Below the pieces are notes generated by a model. That model was not told where the DNA came from. It did not search any database and saw only the letters and a program-made list of their open reading frames with translations. This document shows, in pieces, positions 11,898 through 30,210 of a stretch of DNA of 64,000 bases. Position 1 is the first letter of the stretch. Every line of letters begins with the position of its first letter. A program made the translations under genes and the position numbers. Origin of the DNA: Candidatus Bathyarchaeia archaeon (GTDB lineage Archaea; Thermoproteota; Bathyarchaeia; 40CM-2-53-6); NCBI GenBank assembly GCA_049517415.1, contig JBEKSC010000011.1, positions 2,781 to 66,780 on the forward strand, given 5' to 3'.

Positions 11898-12004
11898 GGG
11901 CCCGTAGCTCAGCTAGGCTAGAGCGACAGAAAACGAAAGTCGAAGCTCATATGCGCAACTGAGGAACCTGCTGGTCGAGGGTTCGAATCCCTCCGGGCCC
12001 ACCA
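11898..12004 (+). tRNA. tRNA-Met (or Ile2) with anticodon CAU, two introns, CCA encoded
   Basis: Acceptor GGGCCCG/CGGGCCC, D arm GCTC-AGCTAGGCTA-GAGC, T arm GAGGG-TTCGAAT-CCCTC. Intron 1 is 11930-11944 (BHB: GAG/CTC, CGAC/GTCG, bulges AGA and AAG) at position 30/31. Intron 2 is 11952-11965, canonical 37/38 (H CTCA/TGAG, bulges TAT and GAA). The mature anticodon arm is ACAGG-CTCATAA-CCTGC. Confidence 0.75.
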
Positions 12005-17725: not shown

Positions 17726-19486
17726 TCAAGTCATACTGATGAGTTGTTTGGGAGTAAGAAGCCACAGCAGCGTCGCACACTTTCCAAGTTGCAGCTTCTC
17801 TACTTGAAGTTTACATAGCCCTCCTTTCTTCAGTAGTGGCCTCGCGCCTGCGCTACCCGAAGTCAATGTGGAGACTAAGGCACTTAATTGAGGATCATGT
17901 CCCACAAGTAACAGATTTCGACAAGATGAATACTTGTCCTGCAATGATCGGATCACTTCTTCCGGCAGAACCTCCGGTTTCAGTGCAGCTGTTGTTTGAA
18001 TCGATTCTCCCAGCCTATATTCGCGACCTACTACGAACGCGGTTTCCAGTGCTCGCCTGTACGGGCTTGTCAGGATAACATCAAACCTAACACCAAGACC
18101 GCGCATGCCCCGAGCGATTATACGCATCCTCTTCATGCCTTTCAAAGTTAACGGGCGGTCCGAATCTAACGGGTAGCCTAGGTCTCCGCGGGCGACTGCG
18201 ATCCCATGACGTAGAGCATAGAGTGTTTTCGAATCAGCAGTCTTAGAGATTGTTGAGTCGTGTAGGATGGGCTTCCAGATGTTCCCAAACTTAGGAATGG
18301 ATCTTAGAAAGCGTTGAGCCACATCCGTTTTTCGGCGTTCAAGATCTAACCAGATTTCAATCACAGCTCGCCGAGCGCCATCTTGTTTCCATTTGAATTC
18401 AACCAAGCTCTTCATCAGAACCTCAATGTCCTGGATCTTACCCATCATTCGCGCGAGCGATTGAGCGGCTCTTAGCTGCTTGCGTTCTATTGGAACCAAC
18501 GGTTGCAGCATTTCCAGCAGGTATCTGAACGGTTTGAACGCGATTCTTACGCTGTGAATCGTTGAATAATCAGCGATAGTGGCATATTCGAGTTTTCCGT
18601 TGACATTGTCAAATGAACGATCCACTGCATCGTTGACGATCTTACTGGCGGCGGATACGGCTATTGTGGCTCGCCGAGCAGCAAGCCGAACTTGCGCCCT
18701 GTTGATCGCGTTCTCAATGAATTTCGTGTTCGAGGACATCTTCTTGGCAGCGCTGAGGTGGTCGCTTTCTCTTTCGCGCAACCTATCGTAGAATTGTTTG
18801 ATTTCAGGTAATTGTTTCAGATAGCCGCGAATAGCAACCATTTCGACGTGAATATCTCTGAGATTGCTGAGCTCTGACAATTGCTCTTTGAGTGTAATGC
18901 GGGCTCTCCGGACAACATTATCCGGATTGAATCGTTCAACCAACTCAACACACGTCATGAGTCGCCTTATACTAACACGAAGATCGTGGACGTTCTTGAC
19001 CGACGCCTTATGCCGAAACTCCTGAAGACGTTTCAAGTAACCAATCCATTCATGATCCAACGTCCCTGAGATAAAATTCAACGCGTCGGGTACGCGTGCT
19101 CCTCGTCTCCGCGCTGGCAATCCACGATTACTAGGCATCCGTCCAGCCCGTTTAGCCGAGACTCGAAGAGATGAGCGCAACTTCCCAGGAAAGTTTTGCC
19201 TAAGACGATCTGTCAGAATGGTTTTCTTTGAAGTCCGTTGCGGTGCAATCTTCCGCCTGTTTATCTCTTTCTTTCCTGCATTCTTCCTTAGGCTTCTTTT
19301 GGAACGTTGTGCTTTGAGCGAATATCGCTTACTTCTAATCGCCTTCGAGAGTCGTTTGGGCTTTCTCCTGGACCGGGTTGTCATCTGTTCTCTCGCCTTC
19401 TTCCTTGAGGCTTGCGCTGAGCGTGGCCTCAAAGATGACGTATGTGACGTAGTTGACCTTCTTTTTCTCCTTGGGACTTCACTCAA
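17726..19486 (-). CDS. polybasic N-terminal tail + CHAD domain + SixA-type histidine phosphatase fusion
   Basis: 586 aa. The N-terminal stretch of about 140 aa is dominated by R/K/S. The middle is helical with VHDLRVSIRRLMTCVEL (CHAD-like). The C-terminus has LYALRHGIAVARGD...LTLKG...SPYRRALETA...VGHDP (SixA/His_Phos_1). Confidence 0.7.
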   Translation of the reverse strand: MSEVPRRKRRSTTSHTSSLRPRSAQASRKKAREQMTTRSRRKPKRLSKAIRSKRYSLKAQRSKRSLRKNAGKKEINRRKIAPQRTSKKTILTDRLRQNFPGKLRSSLRVSAKRAGRMPSNRGLPARRRGARVPDALNFISGTLDHEWIGYLKRLQEFRHKASVKNVHDLRVSIRRLMTCVELVERFNPDNVVRRARITLKEQLSELSNLRDIHVEMVAIRGYLKQLPEIKQFYDRLRERESDHLSAAKKMSSNTKFIENAINRAQVRLAARRATIAVSAASKIVNDAVDRSFDNVNGKLEYATIADYSTIHSVRIAFKPFRYLLEMLQPLVPIERKQLRAAQSLARMMGKIQDIEVLMKSLVEFKWKQDGARRAVIEIWLDLERRKTDVAQRFLRSIPKFGNIWKPILHDSTISKTADSKTLYALRHGIAVARGDLGYPLDSDRPLTLKGMKRMRIIARGMRGLGVRFDVILTSPYRRALETAFVVGREYRLGESIQTTAALKPEVLPEEVIRSLQDKYSSCRNLLLVGHDPQLSALVSTLTSGSAGARPLLKKGGLCKLQVEKLQLGKCATLLWLLTPKQLISMT

Positions 19487-19588
19487 CTCTCAACAGGCTC
19501 CCAAGTTAGCTACAGCTCTCCAACTCAAATCAGTTCCATGCAAGACGGATTTGCGTGCGCTTTCGGAATTTCCGATCTCGTAGGTTCA

Positions 19589-21106
19589 TCACCCTATCAG
19601 TAACTTCTTCTTGAATACCTTTTCGAATAGTCTGGAACGGTAACCCAAAGCCCATTTCTCAAGCAGCATGTCGCCCTGTCCTTTCAGACGCAAAATGATC
19701 TTCTTCTTACCCTTGACGAGCTTGAGCTCCTCTACTCTATTGGAATGTTCGCGGTCAAGCGCCTCCGCGAGTCTTAGGATGGCGGCCAACTTAGCCACTA
19801 TTTGACGTCGCTTGGGTGAAAGGTCAGTGAATTCCTTGTGGCTGGGTCTGGGGAATGATCGGGTGTGGTAGCGAGCTACATTCGCAACCATCGTTTTCTC
19901 CACGTCATCGAGTCCTATTATTGGTGAAGCGTTGATCAAATAGAATGAGTGCTTGTGGTGGTCCATCGGACCAATGAAGTAGCCGATATCATGTAACAAC
20001 GCTGCAACTTCAAGGAGCGTCCTTTCGTCATAACCCAACTTATGGAGTTTCTTTGTAGCGTCAAACAGTTCAACCGCGAAACGGGCGACGGTCAATGCAT
20101 GCTGCGCTTCGTAATCATACTTCCTTCCCAGCAATTTTGCGGAGATAATTACTTGGGTTCGGTGCAGTGGTCTTGCAGTGCTCTTCAGCCCTTCTGCCAT
20201 ATCGATTAGAAGTCCTTCTCTGACTCCGACGCGGGGGATTAGGATTTGCTGGACTCGTGCTTCTTTCGCGACGTTTTGGAGAACGATAGTAGCTGGAATG
20301 ATTACGTCTGCTCTGTCCGGTCGTAATCCGAAGTCTTTGATCCTGTCTTCATAAGACCGTGACTGTAGCTCTTTAAGAATTGAATCGAGCTCGTCCATGT
20401 TTACCGAAGTGTCATCTTTTCCATCGCACAATTGTACTCGTAAGTCGCCTAGGGATTCGACGTTGCCGCCCGTAGCGATGCATAAGTCTACTTTGCGTTC
20501 ACCGATTTCCTTTCGAAGGCGCGTACCTGAAACGTTGATGTACTCACGAACCAGCTGCCGAAAGACTCTTTCACCCCGCTTCTTCTGTTCCAGCATCTGC
20601 AATAGTCTGACAGTGCCAATGCCGAAGCTTTCGGTGGCAATTATCTCGCGTCCAGTTGCCAGGGTTATTTCAACGCTACCGCCGCCAATATCCACGAGGA
20701 GCGCCACCTTGCCTTCCAAGTTTACGGCTTTAGAAGTAGCTAGGTAAAGCAAGCGTGCTTCTTCTTCTCCGCTAATCGGCTCGATGGCTATCTCTGTCGC
20801 TTTGGTAATCTGATTTATGCAATAATCTCGATTCCGTGCTTCCCGGATAGCGCTCGTGCCCACCGCTTTCACTGACTTCACTTTGTGCTGGTTGATCAGT
20901 TTTCGAAATCTGAGGAACGCATCCATTGCTTCAACGAGTCGACTATCAGAAATCTCGCCTTTTGCGAACACATCGGCGCCTAGCCGCACTGCCTCCCGGT
21001 TAGTCTGAACTATGTGCAACCTACCCTCATCATCGGCTGAGGCTATCGCTAGCCGCATCGCGTTCGAACCGACATCAATTGCGGCAAGTTTCGGCAAACT
21101 ATGCAC
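19589..21106 (-). CDS. ppx: exopolyphosphatase / guanosine pentaphosphate phosphohydrolase family (Ppx/GppA)
   Basis: 505 aa. AAIDVGSNAMRLAIA and VDIGGGSVEI (ASKHA fold), with a C-terminal HD-like LLHDIGYFI...ARYHTR. Confidence 0.85.
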   Translation of the reverse strand: MHSLPKLAAIDVGSNAMRLAIASADDEGRLHIVQTNREAVRLGADVFAKGEISDSRLVEAMDAFLRFRKLINQHKVKSVKAVGTSAIREARNRDYCINQITKATEIAIEPISGEEEARLLYLATSKAVNLEGKVALLVDIGGGSVEITLATGREIIATESFGIGTVRLLQMLEQKKRGERVFRQLVREYINVSGTRLRKEIGERKVDLCIATGGNVESLGDLRVQLCDGKDDTSVNMDELDSILKELQSRSYEDRIKDFGLRPDRADVIIPATIVLQNVAKEARVQQILIPRVGVREGLLIDMAEGLKSTARPLHRTQVIISAKLLGRKYDYEAQHALTVARFAVELFDATKKLHKLGYDERTLLEVAALLHDIGYFIGPMDHHKHSFYLINASPIIGLDDVEKTMVANVARYHTRSFPRPSHKEFTDLSPKRRQIVAKLAAILRLAEALDREHSNRVEELKLVKGKKKIILRLKGQGDMLLEKWALGYRSRLFEKVFKKKLLIG

Positions 21107-21232
21107 TTCTAGCTAAATGGAGTTACGTAGGCAAGCCTTAGTTCTCTGTGGCTTTTGCTTATCAATGGTGTGCAAGCGGAATCTTACATTGACTATCGAG
21201 CTGCGGGATTGCAAGAAGTGCAACTCGTTTTA

Positions 21233-23632
21233 TCATGTTCTCATGCGTGTGCGGACGGTTCTATGATACCGAGCATACGATTCTCTTGGGCGTCTCCGGA
21301 GCGGGTGCCATGTCTTCCATACAACCGTTAGATTACGCCCGAAGGCTTTCTCAAGTGGTTCCTTTGTCTTCATGAGCGCCAGGTCTGCTGCGCGGGCGTC
21401 CCCTTTAGCTTCGCACTCTAGATCCATTCGTTTGGGCAGTACTCTTATGGCAATCTTCCTCACGATGCATTCAGTAGAATAGTTAAGCGCCTCCGCGACT
21501 CGTAGTATCGACGAGAGGACTGCGACTTTCTGCCTTTCAGCCCCACTAAGTAGTGCCAAGTTGAAATGATTCGCATCTGGAATTGCCTTCCGGTGGTATC
21601 TGACGATGCTTCCGATTATGTACCTCTCTCTGAACGTGAACGGGAGTTCGAGATCGTTCAATATCAGCCTAAGCGATAATTTGTGGTAACCCCTGTTGCT
21701 TCTTGAGAGTCCAATGTCGTGAAGGATCGCCGCGCATTCCAACCAGTAGCGTTCCTTTCTGCCAAGAGTGTGCAGTCGTCTCGTCTTGTCGAAAATCATT
21801 AGCGCTAGCTTTCTGCTCTGTTTTGCATGCGAATCGTCCGAAATGAATCGCCTTGCTATTCTCCTGACTTTGCCTATGGTCGAGCGGCTCCTCCACAGCT
21901 GCTTTTTTTCAAGCGCAACATCCAGCTCCTTGGCAGCATCGAGGGATACGCCTCGCAGTAGAACTTGAGCGAGGCTTTCGGGTAGCCCCATTTTTCTTAT
22001 CCCGTTAGCCACAGCTTCAACGTCATAGTTCACTCTTCGGAATTCTACGGAAAACGGATTGAATCTGAGTACAGCGTACTCCGCTCTGTAGCCACCGTCA
22101 GCGGGTCTACCGACGCTTCCTGGATTCACGAACGTGACTCCACCCACGTTCCTGTTCATTTGTATGTGGGAGTGCCCGGTGATAATTGCCTCAGCATTGG
22201 CTTTTGACGCGATCTCTTTGAGACGTTTGCTCGGTGTGTTTGGATATATGTGTTCGTCGACTGAATCGGGAGTCCCATGAGTGAGCAGTATCTTCCTGCC
22301 ACATATTTCGAGTCTCAGTTCCTTCGGGAGAGAGTGGAGGTAGGCTAGGTCGGACGGTGCCAGTTCCCTGAACGTGAACTGCATTATGCTGTTCTTCTCC
22401 AAGCTGAGATTATGTAACCCCTTCTCGAGGATTTCCAGATCGACGTTCCCAATCACGTTCAGAAACCTTGCAGAGCGGATAGCTTGGATCACTTGCTTTG
22501 GGTTGGGGCCGAAACCTACGGCGTCTCCCGCGTTGAGAAAAACATCGATTCCCGATCTCCTAGCATCCGCTACAACTGCCTTCAATGCGTCAAGATTACC
22601 ATGAATATCTGAGATAACAGCTACGGTCGGGTTATCACGGTTCAAGATTTCGCGGACGACATCGCTACTCGGTCCCGTTTCAGTTACCTGCCGTATGTTG
22701 TCGAAAAGCCCTTTCGCGACGGCATTGTCCCATAGTGAAACGAAATCCTTGTAGCGGGACTTCCTCATTTCTGCTGCGTGGTTTAGTACCTTACTCGTGC
22801 CGTATCTGGCATCGTCTGGAATGCCTTGCAGAGAGGCGGCAAACTCTTGAACCCATACAACATAGTCGTGGATCTCGCCTAGTACGTCTTGGAGCTGTTT
22901 CATTAGCGAGATTTGTTCTTTCAATTCTTCCTTGTAGATGGAAGAGAAGATTTCCATCGTGTATCTTAGCCGTTTTGCGGCTATTCTCAGTTCGTGATGC
23001 TTTACGGCTGCACTTTCATCATGGACGAACTGTTCAAGAGCTAGGACCTCGTCGAGTCTGCTCGATATGTGATCGCGAGCTTTCTCGTAGGTTGACGGTG
23101 TCTTGATGGCGGATTCGCTACGGTTTCGTTCGTGTGGCAGATTCCTCAGGATCGTCATGCTACTGGTGGAAATATCCGTCAGAATGTTGGAGCCATCTAG
23201 CGCGTCAAGGACGCTGACTACGTCGGACTGCATTCCAACCCTGCGTGCCTTTTGTAGCGTTATGAGGTATGTCAGTCCTGGTAAGGCGTTCCTATCTTCG
23301 ACGCTTCCTGAGTAGTTCTCCAAAAAGGTTAGTTGAACGTCTGCGTCTCTCGCTGCTCCCGAAGATCTGGTTACGTTTCTGATCCCCTTCATCCATTTCC
23401 TTGATGCTTTCTTTGGGAAGCATTCTTCGAAGAGACTGAGGGCCGCTCTCATCCTTCTTGAGGTGACCCTTAGTTTGTGCATGAATTCGATGTCATAGTT
23501 CTTCCTTACACCTTCCATCTGATTCTCAAGCGTCGCAATTTGACGTAATAGCGTGTCGGCGCCGAGCAGACAATAACCGTGGTCTTCATAGATTTCCGGA
23601 AGGTTGGGCTTTGACGCTTTCATGCCATGCAC
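21233..23632 (-). CDS. CHAD + calcineurin-like metallophosphoesterase + Ppx-C-terminal HD-like domain fusion
   Basis: 799 aa. The N-terminus has FMHKLRVTSRRMRAALSLF and HHELRIAAKRLRYTMEIF (CHAD). The centre has VAVISDIHGN, NAGDAVGFGP and ITGHSH (MPE motifs). The C-terminus has AILHDIGLS...VRYHRK. The start overlaps the ppk1 stop. Confidence 0.7.
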   Translation of the reverse strand: MHGMKASKPNLPEIYEDHGYCLLGADTLLRQIATLENQMEGVRKNYDIEFMHKLRVTSRRMRAALSLFEECFPKKASRKWMKGIRNVTRSSGAARDADVQLTFLENYSGSVEDRNALPGLTYLITLQKARRVGMQSDVVSVLDALDGSNILTDISTSSMTILRNLPHERNRSESAIKTPSTYEKARDHISSRLDEVLALEQFVHDESAAVKHHELRIAAKRLRYTMEIFSSIYKEELKEQISLMKQLQDVLGEIHDYVVWVQEFAASLQGIPDDARYGTSKVLNHAAEMRKSRYKDFVSLWDNAVAKGLFDNIRQVTETGPSSDVVREILNRDNPTVAVISDIHGNLDALKAVVADARRSGIDVFLNAGDAVGFGPNPKQVIQAIRSARFLNVIGNVDLEILEKGLHNLSLEKNSIMQFTFRELAPSDLAYLHSLPKELRLEICGRKILLTHGTPDSVDEHIYPNTPSKRLKEIASKANAEAIITGHSHIQMNRNVGGVTFVNPGSVGRPADGGYRAEYAVLRFNPFSVEFRRVNYDVEAVANGIRKMGLPESLAQVLLRGVSLDAAKELDVALEKKQLWRSRSTIGKVRRIARRFISDDSHAKQSRKLALMIFDKTRRLHTLGRKERYWLECAAILHDIGLSRSNRGYHKLSLRLILNDLELPFTFRERYIIGSIVRYHRKAIPDANHFNLALLSGAERQKVAVLSSILRVAEALNYSTECIVRKIAIRVLPKRMDLECEAKGDARAADLALMKTKEPLEKAFGRNLTVVWKTWHPLRRRPRESYARYHRTVRTRMRT

Positions 23633-25769
23633 CTCTGTTGTCGATCAACCAGCGCTGGGAGTCTATGATTTCCTCTCCGAGTAGCGGTCTAACTTTCTCG
23701 TATGTTCCGTCTGGAAGAAGACGCCTGGCCTTCACATTATCCCTCAGATGAATGTCGAGTATTTTCAGCATTGCGGATATGATTGCGCGATCGGGAACGG
23801 AAAAGAGCAACTCGACTCTCCTCTCAAGGTTTCTCGGCATCATATCGCTGCTTCCCAGCAGAACCTCCTCATCACCGCCGTTTCTGAAGTAGTATATTCT
23901 CGCGTGTTCAAGGAACCTGCCCACAATGGAGATGACGCGAATGTTTTCGCTCACACCAGAAATGCCAGGCCTCAGACAACAAAGTCCTCTTACGTTAAGG
24001 TCAACCTTAACGCCCGCTTGTGACGCTCTGTAGAGTGCCTGGATGATACTTTTGTCCACAAGTCCGTTCATCTTAAGCGCCAAGTAACCGTGACCATTCT
24101 CTTTGTGGTTTGTTGTCTCCCTCTCGATGCGGCTGAGTATCTCGTTCTTGAGAGATGTCGGAGCGACCAGCAGATACTTGTATTGGCCGGCCTTTCGAGG
24201 GTCAGTTATCAGCTTATGAAACAGATCTAAGACTTCTGCGCATATCTCAGGCTTGGCTGTGAGGTAGCCTATATCTCCGTAAATTCTTGTGGTCACGTTG
24301 TTGTAGTTTCCCGAGCCAAGATGCGCATACTGAACGAACTTACCGTCCTCTCTTCGAACTATTAACGCCAATTTGGCGTGAACCTTGATCTTGGGAAAGT
24401 TATAGACGACTTTCACTCCTGCTTGAGTCATCATCCTAGCCCATTTGATGTTGTTAGCTTCATCGAATTTCGCCTTCAACTCGATCAAGGCTGTCACAGA
24501 TTTTCCGTTCGCTGCCGCTTTCATCAGGGAGAATATGATGGGGGAATCCGGATCGATACGGTAGAGGGTGATGTAGATTTCAGTGACGTTGGGATCCGTA
24601 GCTGCCTCTGCTAGTAGGGTTACTATCATCTCGAAACTGTCATATGGGTGGTAGAGCGCGAAATCTTTCGCGGCTATAGCTGCGAAAGCAGATTTGCCCG
24701 ATTCCAATTCGGGCAGAACGTAACCTTTGAAAGGTGCATCCTTGAGGTTCGGCTTGTCCAGTTTGAGGAGCCGCCAGAAATCAACCAGCCCAAAGGGGCC
24801 TTCAACCTCATATTGCACGTCCTCAAGGCGTGGAACGCGGAATGAACCAACGCTACTCACTAGGTATTCACGTAAGTGTCGAGGCATAGAAGCCTCAAAC
24901 TCTAACCTCGCCGGCTTACCGTAGCGCCTCTGTCTAACGCTCAGTTCCATAGTTGTAAGAAAGTCGGCATTCTCGTCGGCCTTGGTATCAATCTCCGCAT
25001 TTCGCGTCACTCTGAACTTATAACATTCGCGGACTCGAACCGATGGAAATAACAGATCCAGGTTCGCGGCGACTAAATCCTCCAACAATACGAAATTGTT
25101 CTGTGTGGCATCACGAGCGTCATCGGAGTCAGGAACTCGGATGAAACGCCCAAAAGTATCAGTAGGCACCTCAACCATGAGCTTAGTTGAAGCTTCTTTC
25201 ATTCTCGGATCCTCTCCGACTACTAGCAAGTTGACATGTAGGTTGGAGATGTAACTCGCCACGTAATCTGCATCTGGCTTTTTCATGACCGGAAGTATTT
25301 CGTTCTGGAAATAGTCACGAAGCATTCGTTTCTTCTGCTTTGTCAGGTTGTTGGTTTTCTGTATTCGTATGTTTTCCTTGGCTAAGGCAGGAGAAAGCTC
25401 CTCCTCCCAACATTTTCTCTGCTTGGCGAGAAGCGGAAGAATCTCGCTTCTCGTAACCTGCATCTGCTCTAGCGGAGTCATGCGAGAGCCGGGAGTTGGC
25501 TCAAAGTCGCCTCTTTCAATTTGCTGCTCAAGGATGGACGCGCGGGTCATGAAGAATTCATCGAGATTACTCCCACTAATGGCGAGGAATTTCACGCGTT
25601 CAAGAATCGGGTGATGAGTATCCTGTGCTTCTTCGAGAACCCGGTAGTTGAAGCGTATCCAGCTAACCTCTCGATTGATGAAGAGCGCAGGATCATCCAG
25701 CGACTTACCTGCAGTACTTTGGTCGGCTATTTGAGTCGATGGGACTTGATTCAATAATCTCTCTGTCAT
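23586..25769 (-). CDS. ppk: polyphosphate kinase 1
   Basis: 727 aa. LFINREVSWIRFNYRVLEEA is the N-terminal signature, with a PLD-like HAKLALIV. Full-length PPK1 architecture. Confidence 0.9.
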   Translation of the reverse strand: MTERLLNQVPSTQIADQSTAGKSLDDPALFINREVSWIRFNYRVLEEAQDTHHPILERVKFLAISGSNLDEFFMTRASILEQQIERGDFEPTPGSRMTPLEQMQVTRSEILPLLAKQRKCWEEELSPALAKENIRIQKTNNLTKQKKRMLRDYFQNEILPVMKKPDADYVASYISNLHVNLLVVGEDPRMKEASTKLMVEVPTDTFGRFIRVPDSDDARDATQNNFVLLEDLVAANLDLLFPSVRVRECYKFRVTRNAEIDTKADENADFLTTMELSVRQRRYGKPARLEFEASMPRHLREYLVSSVGSFRVPRLEDVQYEVEGPFGLVDFWRLLKLDKPNLKDAPFKGYVLPELESGKSAFAAIAAKDFALYHPYDSFEMIVTLLAEAATDPNVTEIYITLYRIDPDSPIIFSLMKAAANGKSVTALIELKAKFDEANNIKWARMMTQAGVKVVYNFPKIKVHAKLALIVRREDGKFVQYAHLGSGNYNNVTTRIYGDIGYLTAKPEICAEVLDLFHKLITDPRKAGQYKYLLVAPTSLKNEILSRIERETTNHKENGHGYLALKMNGLVDKSIIQALYRASQAGVKVDLNVRGLCCLRPGISGVSENIRVISIVGRFLEHARIYYFRNGGDEEVLLGSSDMMPRNLERRVELLFSVPDRAIISAMLKILDIHLRDNVKARRLLPDGTYEKVRPLLGEEIIDSQRWLIDNRGAWHESVKAQPSGNL

Positions 25770-26305
25770 GTTCCTGTCTTCTTTCCTGAATAGTAATCGA
25801 TCAGGTCGAATGTTGTCCAGGATCTACATTCTTCTGGCTGGAATCCAAGAAGTTTGGCGTGCAGATGTATCACCTCGATATCCTTCCCCTCAATCTCCAA
25901 CAATTCTGGTATATGCGAATACTCCCCAGCGTACTTGTCTATGTCAACTTCAACTCCGCTTTTCAGTGTATAGCTGGTTCGGTGTTTCTCCATTCGCCAA
26001 GTTGAGACGAGGCCAATAGATTCGAGTATCAGGCACATTGTCTCAAAATCCGAGATTGAGACTTCGTACTCATTTCTAATCTTTGCCGAATGGCTCTCCA
26101 CGAACTTCTTGAATGTCAAAACAGTCTCGTCGCCAATTTTCCTGAGGCGCAAGAGGTTTCTTGCCCGCGTAATTGTATCATCTTGAAAGTCGAAAAACCA
26201 TGTCTCTACGTCACCATCGAAAGTCTTCGCAGCGCCTAGAGTTGCCAAGCTATCCTCAACTTTTTTTCTGTCAATTTCGATGATCTTGATCTCTATCTCT
26301 TTCAT
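25766..26305 (-). CDS. CYTH-domain protein (triphosphate tunnel metalloenzyme)
   Basis: Starts MKEIEIKIIEI (ExExK). The ATG at 26305 is preferred over the tracked upstream start at 26362. An ATGA overlap links it to the ppk1 start. Confidence 0.7.
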   Translation of the reverse strand: MKEIEIKIIEIDRKKVEDSLATLGAAKTFDGDVETWFFDFQDDTITRARNLLRLRKIGDETVLTFKKFVESHSAKIRNEYEVSISDFETMCLILESIGLVSTWRMEKHRTSYTLKSGVEVDIDKYAGEYSHIPELLEIEGKDIEVIHLHAKLLGFQPEECRSWTTFDLIDYYSGKKTGT

Positions 26306-26580
26306 GATATTGGAATTGATTTCGCATGGGTTAATCAGTTTCGGTGCTGACGCATAGCGCAAGAGGAGAGACGAGAGAGTGTGAGCATCCTAGCATCATT
26401 CGAGGTCATAAACAACCTAGAAGAAGGAGAGTTTGGGGTAGGAATTGGTTGAGATAATCGATCTGGGATAGTGAAACTGCAGTTCTCACATTGGCTCGTT
26501 AGTGGGACACGTTTGTCGGGATTGGGGAGCGAAAAGGGAAACAGTTAATCTTCTTGCACGGGCTCTCTTCGGTCATTTAG

Positions 26581-27390
26581 TTACTTGAGAACATACCGAG
26601 AGACGTTGAAAGAAGGTTTCGGAAATTTCATGTTTAAATCATCTAGTGTCTTGACAATGATGTGTGATACTGCAAGGTTTCTGAACCATTTCTTGTTTGA
26701 GGGGATGATATACCATGGCGCCCATGGAGTGCTGCAGTATCGGAGCACGTCTTCGTAAGCGTCCATGTAGTCGTTCCAGTACCTTCTCTCCTGGAAATCA
26801 TGTTGCGAGAGTTCCCACCATTTGGTGCGGTCTTCCAATCTTTGCTGGAAGCGCTTCTTCTGTTCTTCCCTACTGATATGCAAGTAGAACTTCAGTATCT
26901 TAACCTTGTTTTCGGCAAGGATCCTTTCGAAATTGTTGATCTCTCTGTAGCGTCTTGACCAGATGGATTCTGGCACGAGCTTGTGAACTCTTACTACTAG
27001 GACGTCTTCGTAGTGGGAACGGTTGAATATGCCTATCTCGCCTCGGTCGGGAATAGCGTTATGGATGCGCCATAGGAAGTCATGAGCTGCCTCTTCGACA
27101 GAAGGGGCCTTAAACGACGTAACGCGGCAACCTTGGGGATTTACTCCTGATATCACGTGGCGGATAGTTCCATCTTTTCCGGCTCCATCCATTCCTTGAA
27201 GGACAATGAGAAGTGAGTACGTCTTTGAAGCATAGAGCAGATATTGTAAGTCATCTAGCCGAGCAACAAGCTTCTGAAGCATCCTCTGCGACCCCTCATC
27301 GTTCTTCAATCCTAGAGTATCGTCTGGATCCAACTTGCTAAGCCTGTTTTTCTTCCCAGGGGCCACGAGTAGTCGGTTATGTATTTTCAT
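26581..27390 (-). CDS. ppk2: polyphosphate kinase 2 family (single-domain polyP:nucleotide phosphotransferase)
   Basis: 269 aa. LIVLQGMDGAGKDGTIRHV is a Walker A, plus PPK2 lid region motifs. Confidence 0.85.
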   Translation of the reverse strand: MKIHNRLLVAPGKKNRLSKLDPDDTLGLKNDEGSQRMLQKLVARLDDLQYLLYASKTYSLLIVLQGMDGAGKDGTIRHVISGVNPQGCRVTSFKAPSVEEAAHDFLWRIHNAIPDRGEIGIFNRSHYEDVLVVRVHKLVPESIWSRRYREINNFERILAENKVKILKFYLHISREEQKKRFQQRLEDRTKWWELSQHDFQERRYWNDYMDAYEDVLRYCSTPWAPWYIIPSNKKWFRNLAVSHIIVKTLDDLNMKFPKPSFNVSRYVLK

Positions 27391-27393
27391 CGC

Positions 27394-29832
27394 TCAGAAT
27401 CCTTCATGCTTGTAAAAGAGCCGCTTAGTTAGCTCCGCGCCCAGAATGTATAATCCAACAATAATCGCAGTGAAGACGAGGAAAGTAAGCGAGACAGGAA
27501 CAAATCCAAACAACATTCCTAGAGCCGTAAAGGGTAGAAGACCAGTTGCAACTACTACGCATAATGTCGCAAACATAAGGTATTTGCTAGGCTTACTTCT
27601 GAAGAACGATTGTTGAGTACGAATGACTAACACAATCAGAGTGGCAGAAGCCACTGATTCAATGAACCAACCTGTTCTGAACTGATCCGCTGTTGCATGC
27701 AAGATGAAGAGAAGTACACCGAATGTTGCGTAGTCGAAGACCGAGCTAAGGAGACCGAAAATCATCATGAAGTCCCGGATGAATTTTATGTTCCAGCGTC
27801 TGGGTTTCTGCACCATGCCACTGTCAACGCTATCCGTGGGTATGGCCATTTCAGGGAAGTCAGTCATGAGATTTGTAAGCAGAACTTGCGTGGGCAGCAA
27901 GGGTAGGAAGGATAAGAATAGTGAAGCTCCCGCCATGCTGAACATGTTTCCGAAATTGGCACTCGCAGCCATGAACACGTACTTGAGAGTGTTAGCGAAA
28001 GTTTTTCGACCATCTTGCACACCTTGTACTAGAACACCCAAGTCTTTCTCAAGTAATACGATGTCAGCAGCTTCCTTAGCTACGTCTACTGCAGTGTTCA
28101 CTGAGATTCCGACGTCTGCAGCATGGAGTGCTGAGGCGTCATTGATTCCGTCGCCGATGAAGCCTACAATATATCCTGCTTTCTTGAACGCTAAGATAAT
28201 TCGCTCTTTATGGTTGGGATCGACTTCAGCGAACACGTCGGTAACTTTGACTCGTTCAAGGAGCGCTTCGTCACTCATAATATGGAGTTCAGGGCCTGTA
28301 AGAACACGTGAACTGGTTAGCCCTACTTGTGTGCTCAGATATGCCGCGACGAATCTGTTGTCTCCCGTTATGATCTTTAACGCAATTCCAAGGTTCTGTA
28401 GGTCTTGTAGAACTGTCTTAATCATCGGCTTAGGCGGATCAAACAATAGTAAGAAACCCAAGAAAGTCATCTGAGTTTCTTGATCTTTGCCAATGCGGTC
28501 AGTAGGAACGTTCTTGTATGCCACACCGAGCAGCCGGAAACCTTGGCCGCTCAAGTCTTCGAAGCGTTGCTGGACTTGCTCGCGAACATCGGCAATTTGA
28601 ACGAGCCCCTTCGTGGTCTCTGCTTGGGTGCAGGCGTCGAGTATGTTTTGTACCGCGCCCTTTGTCGTCATGATGTGCATGTTATCCTTCGACACCAGGA
28701 TACTGAGTCTCTTCCGGACAAAATCGTATGGGATTTCGTCCACTTTCTTGTAAGAGGTGAAGTCAAACGTACTCTTCGCTCGAATTGCTTCGTCTATGGG
28801 GTTTGCAAAGCCGCTCTCAAAATTTGCATTCAGACATGCATATAGGAGAACCTTTTCGCTGGTGTTGCCTTCGAAATCAATGGTAGAATGGATCTCTACT
28901 TTTCCTTCGGTTAGGGTTCCGGTCTTGTCCGAACAGAGAAGGTTCATGCTGCCAAAGTTTTCAATTGAGACAAGTCGTTTCACGATAACTTTCTGCTTTG
29001 CCATTTCCTTCGCGCCGTGCGCAAGATTTACGGTTACTATAGCGGGTAGTAGTTGTGGTGTTAAACCGACCGCGAGTGCCACTGCGAATAGAAAGGACGA
29101 AAGGATTGGCCGTCCCAAGTAGGCGTTGACAGCGAAGATCACGATTGCCATGACTAGAGTGATTTCCATGAGGAGGTAGCCGAATTGCCTGACACCGTGC
29201 TCGAACCCGGTCTCTGGGGGTTTAAGCGCAAGACTTTCAGAGATTTTCCCGAATTCGGTTTTCTTCCCGGTTGTTACGACAAGAGCTTTGCCAGTACCGC
29301 TGACAACATGAGTTCCCATGAACAAAGTGTTCGAGCGAGCGCTCAAGGGTGCGTCGGGCGCAAGGACCCCGACGGATTTTTCTGCGGGGTAAGTCTCACC
29401 CGTAAGCGTCGCTTCATCAACGAAAAGATCCCTAACTTCGATAATTGCGCAGTCGCCGGGAACCATGTTCCCTGCGTTCAGTATCGCAACATCCCCTGGT
29501 ACGATTTGCTCTAGAGGAATTTGGCTTGGTTCTCCGTTCCGTAGTGCAGTCGTATTGATCTGTACGATTGATAGTAACTTCTTCACGGCATCGCTTGCGC
29601 CGCGCTCCTGCGAGAACCCGAGTAGACCGCTGACGAATACAATGGCTAAGATAATTGCGGCACTTGTTGGATCCTGCAGAAAGATGGAAAGTATAGCTGC
29701 AACGAGCAAGATGAGTACGAGAGGGCTTCTGAATTGATTAAGTAGAAGCGTGATGGCGTCAGTTTTCTTCTTCTCCTTTAATAGATTATATCCATATGAT
29801 GAGAGTCGTAGTTGAGCTTCGTTATTGGTCAA
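27394..29832 (-). CDS. P-type ATPase, MgtA-like (type IIIB) cation transporter
   Basis: CSDKTGTLT, ITGDN, GDGINDASAL. NFGNMFSMAGASLFLSFLPLLPTQVLLTNLMTDFPEMAIPTDSVD closely resembles the MgtA signature region. The N-terminal boundary is uncertain (see findings). Confidence 0.85.
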   Translation of the reverse strand: MTNNEAQLRLSSYGYNLLKEKKKTDAITLLLNQFRSPLVLILLVAAILSIFLQDPTSAAIILAIVFVSGLLGFSQERGASDAVKKLLSIVQINTTALRNGEPSQIPLEQIVPGDVAILNAGNMVPGDCAIIEVRDLFVDEATLTGETYPAEKSVGVLAPDAPLSARSNTLFMGTHVVSGTGKALVVTTGKKTEFGKISESLALKPPETGFEHGVRQFGYLLMEITLVMAIVIFAVNAYLGRPILSSFLFAVALAVGLTPQLLPAIVTVNLAHGAKEMAKQKVIVKRLVSIENFGSMNLLCSDKTGTLTEGKVEIHSTIDFEGNTSEKVLLYACLNANFESGFANPIDEAIRAKSTFDFTSYKKVDEIPYDFVRKRLSILVSKDNMHIMTTKGAVQNILDACTQAETTKGLVQIADVREQVQQRFEDLSGQGFRLLGVAYKNVPTDRIGKDQETQMTFLGFLLLFDPPKPMIKTVLQDLQNLGIALKIITGDNRFVAAYLSTQVGLTSSRVLTGPELHIMSDEALLERVKVTDVFAEVDPNHKERIILAFKKAGYIVGFIGDGINDASALHAADVGISVNTAVDVAKEAADIVLLEKDLGVLVQGVQDGRKTFANTLKYVFMAASANFGNMFSMAGASLFLSFLPLLPTQVLLTNLMTDFPEMAIPTDSVDSGMVQKPRRWNIKFIRDFMMIFGLLSSVFDYATFGVLLFILHATADQFRTGWFIESVASATLIVLVIRTQQSFFRSKPSKYLMFATLCVVVATGLLPFTALGMLFGFVPVSLTFLVFTAIIVGLYILGAELTKRLFYKHEGF

Positions 29833-30210
29833 GCCTTCTGGGGCCGTCTTAAGCTGATCAAATAGCTCTGAGCTGGGAATGCTCCAGAAAGGTTTCTCAT
29901 CAGAGCTGATTGTATCCCTCTCCCAAAATCTGTATCACAACACTACATCGCCCGGCTATAAGCACACAACGTCGAAGCACTTGAAGGGACACTTGCATGC
30001 AACCTCTCATGAGATCATGAACAAAGAAGTCAAGACTGTTCCTGTTCTGATTTGCATCGATAAAGTGGCTCTTGCAAGCCGTGAACACGGTGCTTCTAAC
30101 TTACCTACTTCTGCTAGGTCTAGACCAATGAACCCTAGATATTTGAGGAGAAATAAAATGTAGGATTTTCGGTCAACAAAGTTTCTAGGCTGTTCGCCTA
30201 GTGGCTTTGT

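Follow-up and report, generated by a model that had tools for sequence, protein, structure and literature searches.

Gene content and conservation of a polyphosphate locus in a Bathyarchaeia archaeon, with a candidate polyphosphatase

The stretch of DNA analysed here, 64,000 nucleotides of contig JBEKSC010000011.1 from an uncultured Candidatus Bathyarchaeia archaeon of peat or soil (the window), carries seven consecutive minus-strand open reading frames (ORFs) at positions 17726–29832 whose predicted products provide a complete set for the synthesis, use and degradation of polyphosphate (polyP). We consider it likely that these genes (g1 to g7, Table 1) make up a composite chromosomal polyP locus, consisting of three modules which are conserved to different depths and are probably transcribed as at least three units. 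An earlier description, made from the letters of the window without database searches (the sequence-only reading), had presented the island as a single self-contained module for granule synthesis, turnover and counter-ion supply. Its seven co-directional polyP-related genes agree with the ORF list in number and position, and the seven family assignments, including CHAD, CYTH and PPK2, hold in profile searches of the window proteins against Pfam and NCBIfam as well as in a motif check, in which all catalytic signature motifs of the seven proteins were intact.

Table 1. Genes, domains and putative control elements of the polyP island (positions in the window).
Feature	Position	Strand	Basis
g1, MgtA-type (P-type IIIB) cation ATPase	27394–29832	-	Pfam, TIGR01524
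g2, single-domain PPK2, class-III-like	26581–27390	-	Pfam, TIGR03709
g3, CYTH / triphosphate tunnel metalloenzyme	25766–26305 (ORF finder: to 26362)	-	Pfam CYTH
g4, PPK1, 727 amino acids	23586–25769	-	four PPK1 Pfam domains, TIGR03705
g5, CHAD, binuclear metallophosphoesterase (MPE) and PPX C-terminal domains III–IV	21233–23632	-	Pfam, Foldseek
g5, CHAD domain	22844–23551	-	Pfam CHAD 2e-47, 162 bits
g5, MPE domain	22064–22624	-	Metallophos_2 1e-25, 91 bits
g5, PPX domains III–IV	21464–21868	-	Ppx-GppA_III 7e-18
g6, PPX/GppA exopolyphosphatase family, 505 amino acids	19589–21106	-	Pfam
g7, disordered polybasic tail, CHAD and SixA-type histidine phosphatase	17726–19486	-	Pfam, TIGR00249
g7, polybasic tail	19082–19486	-	composition, model
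g7, CHAD	18407–19015	-	Pfam CHAD 1e-21, 78 bits
g7, SixA-type phosphatase	17750–18223	-	His_Phos_1 1.7e-6, TIGR00249 1.5e-20
In-frame upstream continuation of the ATPase (…ISSDEKPFWSIPSSELFDQLKTAPEG)	29833–29935	-	protein-level conservation
Promoter-like element CACCGAAACTGATTAACCC	26328–26346	-	AT-rich core ~28 nt upstream of the CYTH ATG at 26305
Promoter-like element CACCATTGATAAG	21158–21170	-	~55 nt upstream of the PPX start

Conservation of linkage and transcription units

An alignment of g5 homologues led to 74 genome loci with 10 kb flanks, almost all from metagenome-assembled genomes of Bathyarchaeia, onto which the seven window proteins and their domains were mapped (single loci are cited by L numbers). 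PPK1 lies directly upstream of the g5 copy in at least 65 of the 74 loci, the exceptions being mostly second g5 paralogues or short contigs. A PPX-family gene follows g5 directly in 63 loci, CYTH is found on the same strand in 56 and a pst-phoU operon occurs within 10 kb in 21. PPK2 is present in 57 loci, in 51 of them on the opposite strand just past PPX. This core is found in nearly all 74 Bathyarchaeia loci, at 36–87% identity, while the ATPase gene accompanies it in four and g7 in two. The full seven-gene order recurs in L002 (g5 82% identical) and L079, and up to the end of the contig in L001 (g5 87% identical); in L003, the order holds for the first five genes, after which PPX is inverted. 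The seven-gene order is confined to this shallow clade. Since linkage is kept in relatives, the adjacency of the genes is functional and no coincidence. The linkage expected by the sequence-only reading stands in so far as the genes are not scattered in relatives; the conserved unit, however, is smaller than seven genes.

The spacing between the genes had been described correctly before. The ppk2 ATG follows the ATPase stop after three nucleotides (GCG), CYTH and ppk1 are joined via an ATGA overlap (-4 nt), and the ppk1 stop lies 38–47 nt inside the g5 ORF, an overlap that is seen again in L077, L079 and L080. Larger gaps precede CYTH (~275 nt) and PPX (126 nt). In front of the CYTH ATG, conservation among the window, L001, L002, L003 and L079 extends over about 45 nt and no further. 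Because the core of CACCGAAACTGATTAACCC has the distance from this ATG that is expected of an archaeal B recognition element (BRE)/TATA box in front of a leaderless mRNA, the element may be read as the promoter of a leaderless CYTH transcript. The second element, CACCATTGATAAG, has aligned counterparts, AACTTTTGATAAG / AACTTTTCATAAA, in front of PPX in L001, L002, L075, L079, L080 and L081, and a AACTTTTGATAAG-like element ~55–60 nt ahead of the PPX start is retained even in loci whose cluster begins with PPX; a promoter function of CACCATTGATAAG is therefore suggested by conservation. As conserved promoter-like elements precede both CYTH and PPX, the island probably comprises at least three transcription units, i.e., ATPase-PPK2, CYTH-PPK1-g5 and PPX with or without g7. 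A single self-contained unit does not agree with these internal elements, nor with modules that stand separately or in another order in L080, L075, L076 and L081. The broader claim of a locus for polyP synthesis and turnover was right in kind, as gene content and linkage agree with it.

The host genome is archaeal, given an intron-containing tRNA, two thermosome subunits, LonB and a beta-CASP nuclease in the window, and homologues of the window carry the label Candidatus Bathyarchaeia. The tRNA gene with its apparent intron is 104 nt long (11898–12001; Rfam, 47.7 bits); ARAGORN reported no tRNA in the window and missed this intron-bearing one. The flanks of the island are syntenic with L002 and L075, its G+C content (0.46–0.50) is like that of the rest of the window, and no integrase, transposase or tRNA-adjacent junction was found at the island.

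Several further observations were made in the collected loci. Identities are mosaic, with the window PPK1 94% identical to that of L003 and 76% to that of L002, and g5 61% identical to that of L003, 82% to that of L002 and 87% to that of L001, which suggests recombination near the ppk1/g5 junction. A second g5 paralogue lies about 1.2 kb past the inverted PPK2 in 13 of the 74 loci (L017, L021, L023, L024, L030–L032, L040, L041, L046, L054, L057, L059), preceded in L017 and L023 by a C-terminal fragment of PPK1; several of these second copies are without the phosphoesterase metal ligands (e.g., GQSH or GNSQ for GHSH). A PAS histidine kinase and a phoU-pstBAC operon follow the polyP core in L047 (15196–20000) and in about 20 other loci. 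No pst, phoU or histidine kinase genes lie near the island in the window, which has lost this neighbourhood. A hidden CHAD domain in the ~0.9 kb gap between CYTH and PPK1 of distant loci was considered and rejected: the gap in L047 is occupied by a 153-amino-acid ORF on the opposite strand with no Pfam match. Contigs with CYTH-PPK1-g5 also appear under foreign labels (L004, L005, L042, L054, L067, L077; labelled Acidoferrum, Methylomirabilota, Nanoarchaeia, Limnocylindrales, Thermoplasmatales and [Eubacterium] cellulosolvens). Because the clusters on them are of the Bathyarchaeia type, these labels are probably due to mis-binning.

The CHAD-metallophosphoesterase fusion g5 and its bacterial relatives

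The fifth gene had been described as CHAD-metallophosphoesterase-HD. All of these domains were detected, but the part named HD is the C-terminal module of PPX, domains III–IV. At the sequence level, the MPE clears the cut-off of TIGR00040 (YfcE branch) with 56.9 vs 56.25 bits. A confident AlphaFold model of g5 (mean pLDDT 84.7, pTM 0.69) was compared with solved structures using Foldseek. The CHAD domain matched the polyP-bound Chlorobium CHAD 6qva (target TM-score 0.74), the MPE matched SapH 3qfm, a diadenosine tetraphosphate (Ap4A) hydrolase/phosphodiesterase, as well as 3rqz and two Pyrococcus proteins, and the C-terminus matched the PPX structures 3rf0 (target TM-score 0.75), 1u6z and 6pc0. 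The actin-like catalytic domains I–II of PPX are absent and the N-terminal two-thirds of the protein consist of CHAD and Metallophos. Judged by sequence and fold, g5 is built like a PPX in which the actin-like catalytic half has been swapped for CHAD and a binuclear MPE. Metal-ligand motifs are present for both catalytic-type domains (DxH, GD, GNxD, H, GHxH and H..HD..H..D), and 61 of 63 primary g5 orthologues retain the full set of 13 predicted metal ligands. The protein ends in a short basic tail, HPLRRRPRESYARYHRTVRTRMRT (residues 776–799, positions 21233–21304), with 9 K/R in 24 residues and low model confidence.

In order to find relatives of g5, 1.84 billion representative proteins were searched. 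The 654 matches at E ≤1e-30 include about 35–40 full-length clusters, and all pairwise fusions of the three parts (CHAD-MPE, CHAD-HD, MPE-HD) were found and confirmed with Pfam. The CHAD-less MPE-HD family comprises at least 1,597 clusters at E ≤1e-20; its labels, where given, are bacterial (Anaerolineae, Armatimonadota), and its only name is "YfcE family phosphodiesterase". In all five bacterial contexts inspected, the MPE-HD gene is part of a polyP operon and directly follows PPK1 or a CHAD gene. One operon reads PPK1, CHAD, MPE-HD, PPX (L163) and another CHAD, MPE-HD, PPX, whereas the remaining three (L164, L165, L167) read CYTH-HTH-CHAD (HTH, helix-turn-helix), PPK2, PPK2, PPK1, MPE-HD, the last gene abutting or overlapping the ppk1 end. 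Among these three, one CYTH-HTH-CHAD protein also has an HD domain and one locus includes an adenylate kinase gene. The bacterial MPE-HD proteins are 36–44% identical to the matching part of g5, and 19 bacterial relatives show no change at any metal ligand. The order PPK1, CHAD/MPE-HD, PPX is common to bacteria and archaea; judged by these sequences, g5 is a fusion of genes that adjoin in bacteria.

PPX domains III–IV are credited with polyP binding and processivity. Since CHAD and these polyP-binding domains are joined to a binuclear MPE centre in g5, the protein would be a polyP phosphohydrolase, and we predict polyP, or a compound close to it, as the substrate hydrolysed by the g5/MPE-HD family, which makes this family a candidate new polyphosphatase. 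Going one step further, g5 and the bacterial MPE-HD proteins could be unrecognised, widespread prokaryotic polyphosphatases whose genes would invariably lie in polyP operons, mostly with an overlap at the ppk1 stop, and which are made in step with PPK1 and represent its missing endo-cleaving or chain-length-setting partner. We put this forward tentatively, rating it somewhat more apt to fail than to hold. If it were true, g5 of Bathyarchaeia would be the first among CHAD proteins to be assigned a catalytic function. Nothing relevant on a CHAD-metallophosphoesterase fusion or on a YfcE-type or calcineurin-like bacterial polyphosphatase was found in the literature, a search which did not cover the supplementary domain tables of PMC12995831, and no published description of the bacterial MPE-HD polyP operons was found.

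The other genes of the locus

Of the two genes downstream of g5, g6 is a member of the PPX/GppA family (Ppx-GppA 1e-44, 153 bits; domain III/HD 102 bits) with the motifs DVGSN and DIGGGSVE, scoring 222 bits on TIGR03706, under the cut-off of 307. It is 74–89% identical to the g7-paired PPX of L001, L002 and L075 and about 30% identical to the PPX found at this place in most Bathyarchaeia. Residues 1–135 of its neighbour g7 contain 48 K/R vs 5 D/E (isoelectric point 12) and are predicted to be disordered, with pLDDT below 40 and no secondary structure. Polybasic tails of 100–165 amino acids recur in g7 homologues with little sequence conservation. The CHAD domain of g7 is modelled with confidence and matches 6qva (target TM-score 0.69), and the C-terminus, a model part of moderate confidence, matches SixA 3f2i/1ujb (target TM-score ~0.75). 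R426, H427 and H530 (RHG at 426, GHDP at 529) are invariant in 20 g7 homologues. We therefore regard g7 as a putative polyP-tethered histidine phosphatase; its cationic tail may, by analogy, bind or condense polyP. No account of a polybasic CHAD-SixA fusion was found in the literature.

The PPX-g7 pair occurs in eight loci, and g7 homologues always sit after a PPX of the window's type. The pair stands alone in L081, beside PHO4 and pst genes in L076, and at the head of PPX-g7-CYTH-PPK1-g5 in L080, where the genes overlap or leave an 18-nt gap. In L075 (6877–11614), a kinase lies between the two, i.e., PPX is followed by a 528-amino-acid double dTMPK-like protein and then by g7. The N-terminal half of the kinase-like protein matches the PPK3-type structures 2plr/5h70 of S. 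tokodaii at E 1.4e-64, compared with 1e-14 or weaker for true thymidylate kinases. The ABC-2, ABC and PadR genes flanking this locus are 92, 90 and 78% identical to those in the flank of the window, in which no dTMPK-like (PPK3) sequence was detected (tblastn E above 1). Based on sequence, L075 looks like a PPK3-type operon with fused subunits, so that PPK1 and PPK3 would be alternatives in one chromosomal neighbourhood. In addition, a metagenome contig (L078, 3850–9542) carries PPX, PPK1 and a 662-amino-acid HD(PPX domain III)-CHAD-SixA fusion, and adjoins Na/Pi cotransporter-PhoU genes.

The CYTH gene is recognised by Pfam at 1.8e-12 (47.9 bits vs a cut-off of 23.2), with the match beginning at residue 20; EIEIK at residues 22–26 is the ExExK motif. 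Among solved structures, that of the Sulfolobus triphosphate tunnel enzyme Saci_0718 (SaTTM, 7ns8) comes closest, and the score on TIGR00318 (class IV adenylate cyclase CyaB) is under the cut-off (45.7 vs 57.95 bits). Orthologues begin with MKE[IV]E[IV]K, and the most likely start is Met20 (26305), giving 179 amino acids, rather than 26362. The four PPK1 Pfam domains of g4 match at E 1e-34 to 1e-65, TIGR03705 at 742 vs 466 bits, and the catalytic His motifs VHAK and EHAR are present.

At the other end of the island, g1 (812 amino acids as listed) matches E1-E2_ATPase at 3.7e-43 and Cation_ATPase_N/C, exceeds the cut-off of TIGR01524 (magnesium-translocating P-type ATPase; 774 vs 611 bits), aligns over its entire length with E. 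coli MgtA 8uy7 (E 9e-188) and contains the motifs TGE, DKTGT, TGDN and GDGIND. In transmembrane segment 4 (TM4), it reads GLTPQLLP (residues 256–263, positions 29044–29067) vs GLTPEMLP in E. coli MgtA, a change of Glu to Gln. PQLL is shared by L002, L003 and L029, and the PEML of the E. coli MgtA ion site is not found in g1. The reading frame extends upstream of the listed start into a stretch that is conserved as protein, with synonymous changes, in L002 and L003 and that accounts for the first ~21 positions of Cation_ATPase_N, which g1 as listed lacks; L029 has a TTG in frame upstream. The single near-cognate codon in this stretch is a conserved ATC, three genomes agree almost exactly in its first 38 nt, and an out-of-frame ATG opens a 23-codon ORF, MRNLSGAFPAQSYLISLRRPQKA, which ends on the TTG of the ATPase. 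The stretch could reflect a non-canonical start, a frameshift or an mgtL-like leader.

The product of g2 (269 amino acids; Pfam PPK2 2.3e-72, TIGR03709 390 bits, Walker A GMDGAGKDG) has its best solved relatives among single-domain polyphosphate:AMP phosphotransferases (5lc9, 5o6k, 6an9, 6au0; E 1e-76 to 1e-87), of which 6au0 is labelled "Class III", while the PPK2 group of 5llf, 4yeg and 3czq scores only 1e-26 to 1e-31. On this basis g2 is a class-III-like PPK2, predicted to phosphorylate both AMP and ADP. The ATPase-PPK2 pair, with a spacing of 3–5 nt, was found only in the window, L002, L003 and L079. None of 80 metagenomic loci with ATPases 59–88% identical to g1 has an adjacent polyP gene. 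Together with the four ATPase-bearing loci among the 74, this speaks against the earlier view of the divalent-cation pump as an integral counter-ion part of the module. No account of such a pump linked to ppk2 was found in the literature.

Proposed workings, alternatives and comparison with known polyphosphate systems

The three modules could work as follows. In the core module, PPK1 would make polyP from ATP, and g5, made in step with PPK1, would act as a polyP-bound phosphohydrolase that cuts or trims the chains, with CYTH hydrolysing triphosphate or very short chains. In the PPX-g7 module, PPX would take off terminal phosphates, and g7 would tether to polyP both its SixA-type phosphatase, whose target could be chain ends or a phosphohistidine enzyme, PPK1~P for example, and a polycationic disordered tail of ~130 residues, which may help to condense or organise the polyanion. 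In the ATPase-PPK2 module, AMP and ADP would be rephosphorylated by PPK2 at the expense of polyP, and the co-transcribed MgtA-type pump would plausibly supply Mg2+ as cofactor and counter-ion.

The seven genes might instead form one dedicated "granule organelle" module, counter-ion pump included, which is transcribed as one or two operons and co-evolves. We consider this unlikely. Co-directional genes with short or negative spacing, the identical order in L002 and L079, the ATPase-PPK2 spacing of 3–5 nt kept in L002, L003 and L079 and the reported richness of polyP granules in divalent cations (PMC9239181) all fit such a module, but the ATPase and g7 are rare among the related loci (4 and 2 of 74), close ATPase homologues lack adjacent polyP genes (0 of 80 loci), the modules are found apart or reordered, conserved promoter-like elements lie within the island, and most Bathyarchaeia have PPK2 on the opposite strand, downstream of PPX. 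Another alternative is an ATPase that is a neighbour and nothing more, in other words a six-gene polyP cluster beside an ordinary Mg2+ importer, connected by read-through transcription at most. In its favour, close homologues of the pump are common without linkage to polyP genes, the linkage is restricted to a shallow clade, and the mosaic identities between the window and L002/L003 show recent rearrangement and recombination. However, four genomes, with g5 proteins up to 39% different from one another, have all preserved the gap of 3–5 nt between the pump and ppk2, so co-transcription of the pair appears to be retained; PPK2, in this clade, has left its usual place and now follows the pump; and the polyP enzymes involved (PPK1, PPK2, PPX) all require a divalent metal. 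We give the neighbour explanation of the pump a serious chance, a little short of even.

A different function altogether would be nucleotide or second-messenger and phosphate-starvation signalling, with a CyaB-type CYTH, PPX/GppA acting on (p)ppGpp, g5 on Ap4A or cyclic nucleotides and SixA on a phosphorelay. The g5 MPE is indeed closest to SapH, CYTH does match the cyaB profile TIGR00318 (45.7 bits), and a PAS histidine kinase and pst-phoU genes adjoin the cluster in many Bathyarchaeia. Nevertheless, the cyaB match is under its cut-off and the nearest CYTH structure is a triphosphate tunnel metalloenzyme, two CHAD domains and the polyP-binding C-terminus of PPX are fused to the enzymes in question, the constant partners are PPK1 and PPK2, and the island in the window has no histidine kinase or pst genes nearby. 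We therefore hold a signalling locus to be improbable. Still less can be said for a mobile block acquired recently from bacteria by horizontal transfer, although the same families occur in bacteria in the order PPK1-CHAD-MPE-HD-PPX and archaeal PPKs have reportedly been taken from bacteria several times (PMC12995831). Uniform base composition, the lack of mobility genes at the island and syntenic flanks led us to reject it, and as the core is near-universal in the Bathyarchaeia loci, any transfer would be ancient; its probability is very low.

Some of our own results weigh against the composite polyP locus as proposed, or against parts of it. In g5 of the window, residue 717 (21482–21484) is Asn in place of the last HD-type Asp (ALNYS vs ALDYSH), which is present in 61 of 63 primary orthologues and in the bacterial relatives. 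The MPE may possibly use a nucleotide and not polyP as substrate, since the nearest structures are SapH, an Ap4A enzyme, and uncharacterised proteins. The SixA part of g7 scores just below the cut-off of TIGR00249 (73.6 vs 74.5 bits). The Glu to Gln change in TM4 renders the ion moved by g1 uncertain, and the upstream stretch of the ATPase frame contains no ATG, GTG or TTG between the in-frame stop and 29832, the listed start itself being a TTG. In L082, an ATPase 88% identical to g1 is followed by 640 nt of downstream sequence without PPK2. The link between ATPase and PPK2 is young and confined to one clade, and is the least secure part of the locus. The promoters are inferred solely from conservation, and the substrates, the granule localisation and the role of the pump are likewise inferred.

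PolyP is universal, and to our knowledge the known prokaryotic polyP toolkit consists essentially of PPK1, PPK2, PPK3 and PPX. The locus bears on how chain length is set, on roles of CHAD beyond binding and on why SixA sits in polyP operons. It offers three candidates in this respect, namely an MPE with the polyP-binding tail of PPX whose gene is coupled to that of PPK1 in bacteria as well as archaea, a histidine phosphatase tethered by CHAD and bearing a polycationic disordered tail, and a natural pair of close relatives with a PPK1-type and a PPK3-type cluster beside near-identical flanks. The gene set indicates that Bathyarchaeia are equipped for polyP storage. As these archaea are abundant in peat, soil and sediment, such storage bears on phosphorus cycling in these habitats. 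If the enzymatic predictions fail, what is left is an ordinary, though unusually complete, polyP operon.

How far the locus is new becomes clear from comparison with known systems. A conserved archaeal operon, sixA-ppx-cPPK3-rPPK3-CHAD, with two dTMPK-like PPK3 genes, has been characterised in Sulfolobus, and typical neighbours of PPK1 and PPK2 are PPX, SixA, PhoE, CHAD, NUDIX and Pst proteins (PMC12995831). The earlier claim that such a combination had not been described as a unit, particularly in archaea, is therefore too strong, given this published archaeal PPX-SixA-CHAD operon and the kin of the island in bacteria. We found no account in the literature of the exact seven-gene set or of any polyP cluster of Bathyarchaeia, and the preprint supplement of PMC12995831 names only SixA, PPX, dTMPK and CHAD. 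Like the operon of S. acidocaldarius, the island is archaeal and co-directional and combines PPX, SixA-type phosphatase, CHAD and a polyP kinase (PMC12995831). The kinase gene stands beside ppx on the same strand, with only g5 between PPK1 and PPX, and the island holds two CHAD domains (g5, g7) and one SixA-type domain (g7). PPX-g7 represents the same PPX/CHAD/SixA set, but with CHAD and SixA in one polypeptide with a polybasic tail; the window has PPK1 and PPK2 and no PPK3, and adds CYTH, g5 and the MgtA-type pump. Replacement of PPK1 and PPK3 by one another in situ has been proposed (PMC12995831). The bacterial polyP operons (L163, L164, L165, L167) share the families, the order PPK1, CHAD/MPE-HD, PPX and the tight overlaps. 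Unlike the window, they have no SixA fusion and no ATPase, and their CHAD is separate or fused to CYTH, whereas Bathyarchaeia have a CHAD-MPE-HD fusion and a free-standing CYTH.

Single components can be compared in the same way. CHAD binds polyP (PMC6537752), and the presence of CHAD genes in polyP clusters was noted as early as 2002 (Iyer & Aravind, cited in PMC6537752). Both CHAD domains of the window match Pfam and 6qva and keep the conserved His/Arg residues of the "phosins" and CtCHAD (Tumlirsch & Jendrossek 2017; Lorenzo-Orts 2019, PMC6537752). The characterised proteins, however, are stand-alone or fused to CYTH, and those of the window are fused to two different types of phosphohydrolase. 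The g7 tail resembles Pseudomonas AlgP, a polycationic, disordered, histone-H1-like granule protein, in being a long, disordered, strongly cationic low-complexity segment of a polyP-linked protein, a likeness in composition only: AlgP has C-terminal KPAA repeats and binds DNA, while the tail of g7 is N-terminal, rich in K/R/S/T/P and joined to CHAD and SixA (PMC9239181). The pump aligns over its full length with E. coli MgtA (8uy7) and has all P-type motifs, but is without the long disordered N-terminus, reads PQLL for PEML in TM4 and adjoins ppk2; the enrichment of polyP granules in Mg2+/divalent cations is documented (PMC9239181). For g5, E. coli PPX is the model of the C-terminus, which matches domains III–IV by sequence and fold, the actin-like domains I–II being replaced by CHAD and the calcineurin-like binuclear MPE. 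A functional precedent for this MPE is yeast Ppn2, an endopolyphosphatase of the PPP superfamily of metallophosphatases, in which a binuclear metallophosphatase fold is able to cut polyP internally (PMC7381174). Ppn2 is, however, vacuolar, eukaryotic and without CHAD and the C-terminus of PPX, and the g5 MPE belongs to the YfcE/SapH-like branch; the two are likened by function only. PolyP operons with accessory genes of this kind, archaea included, are already established, and the new lead is g5 together with the MPE-HD family.

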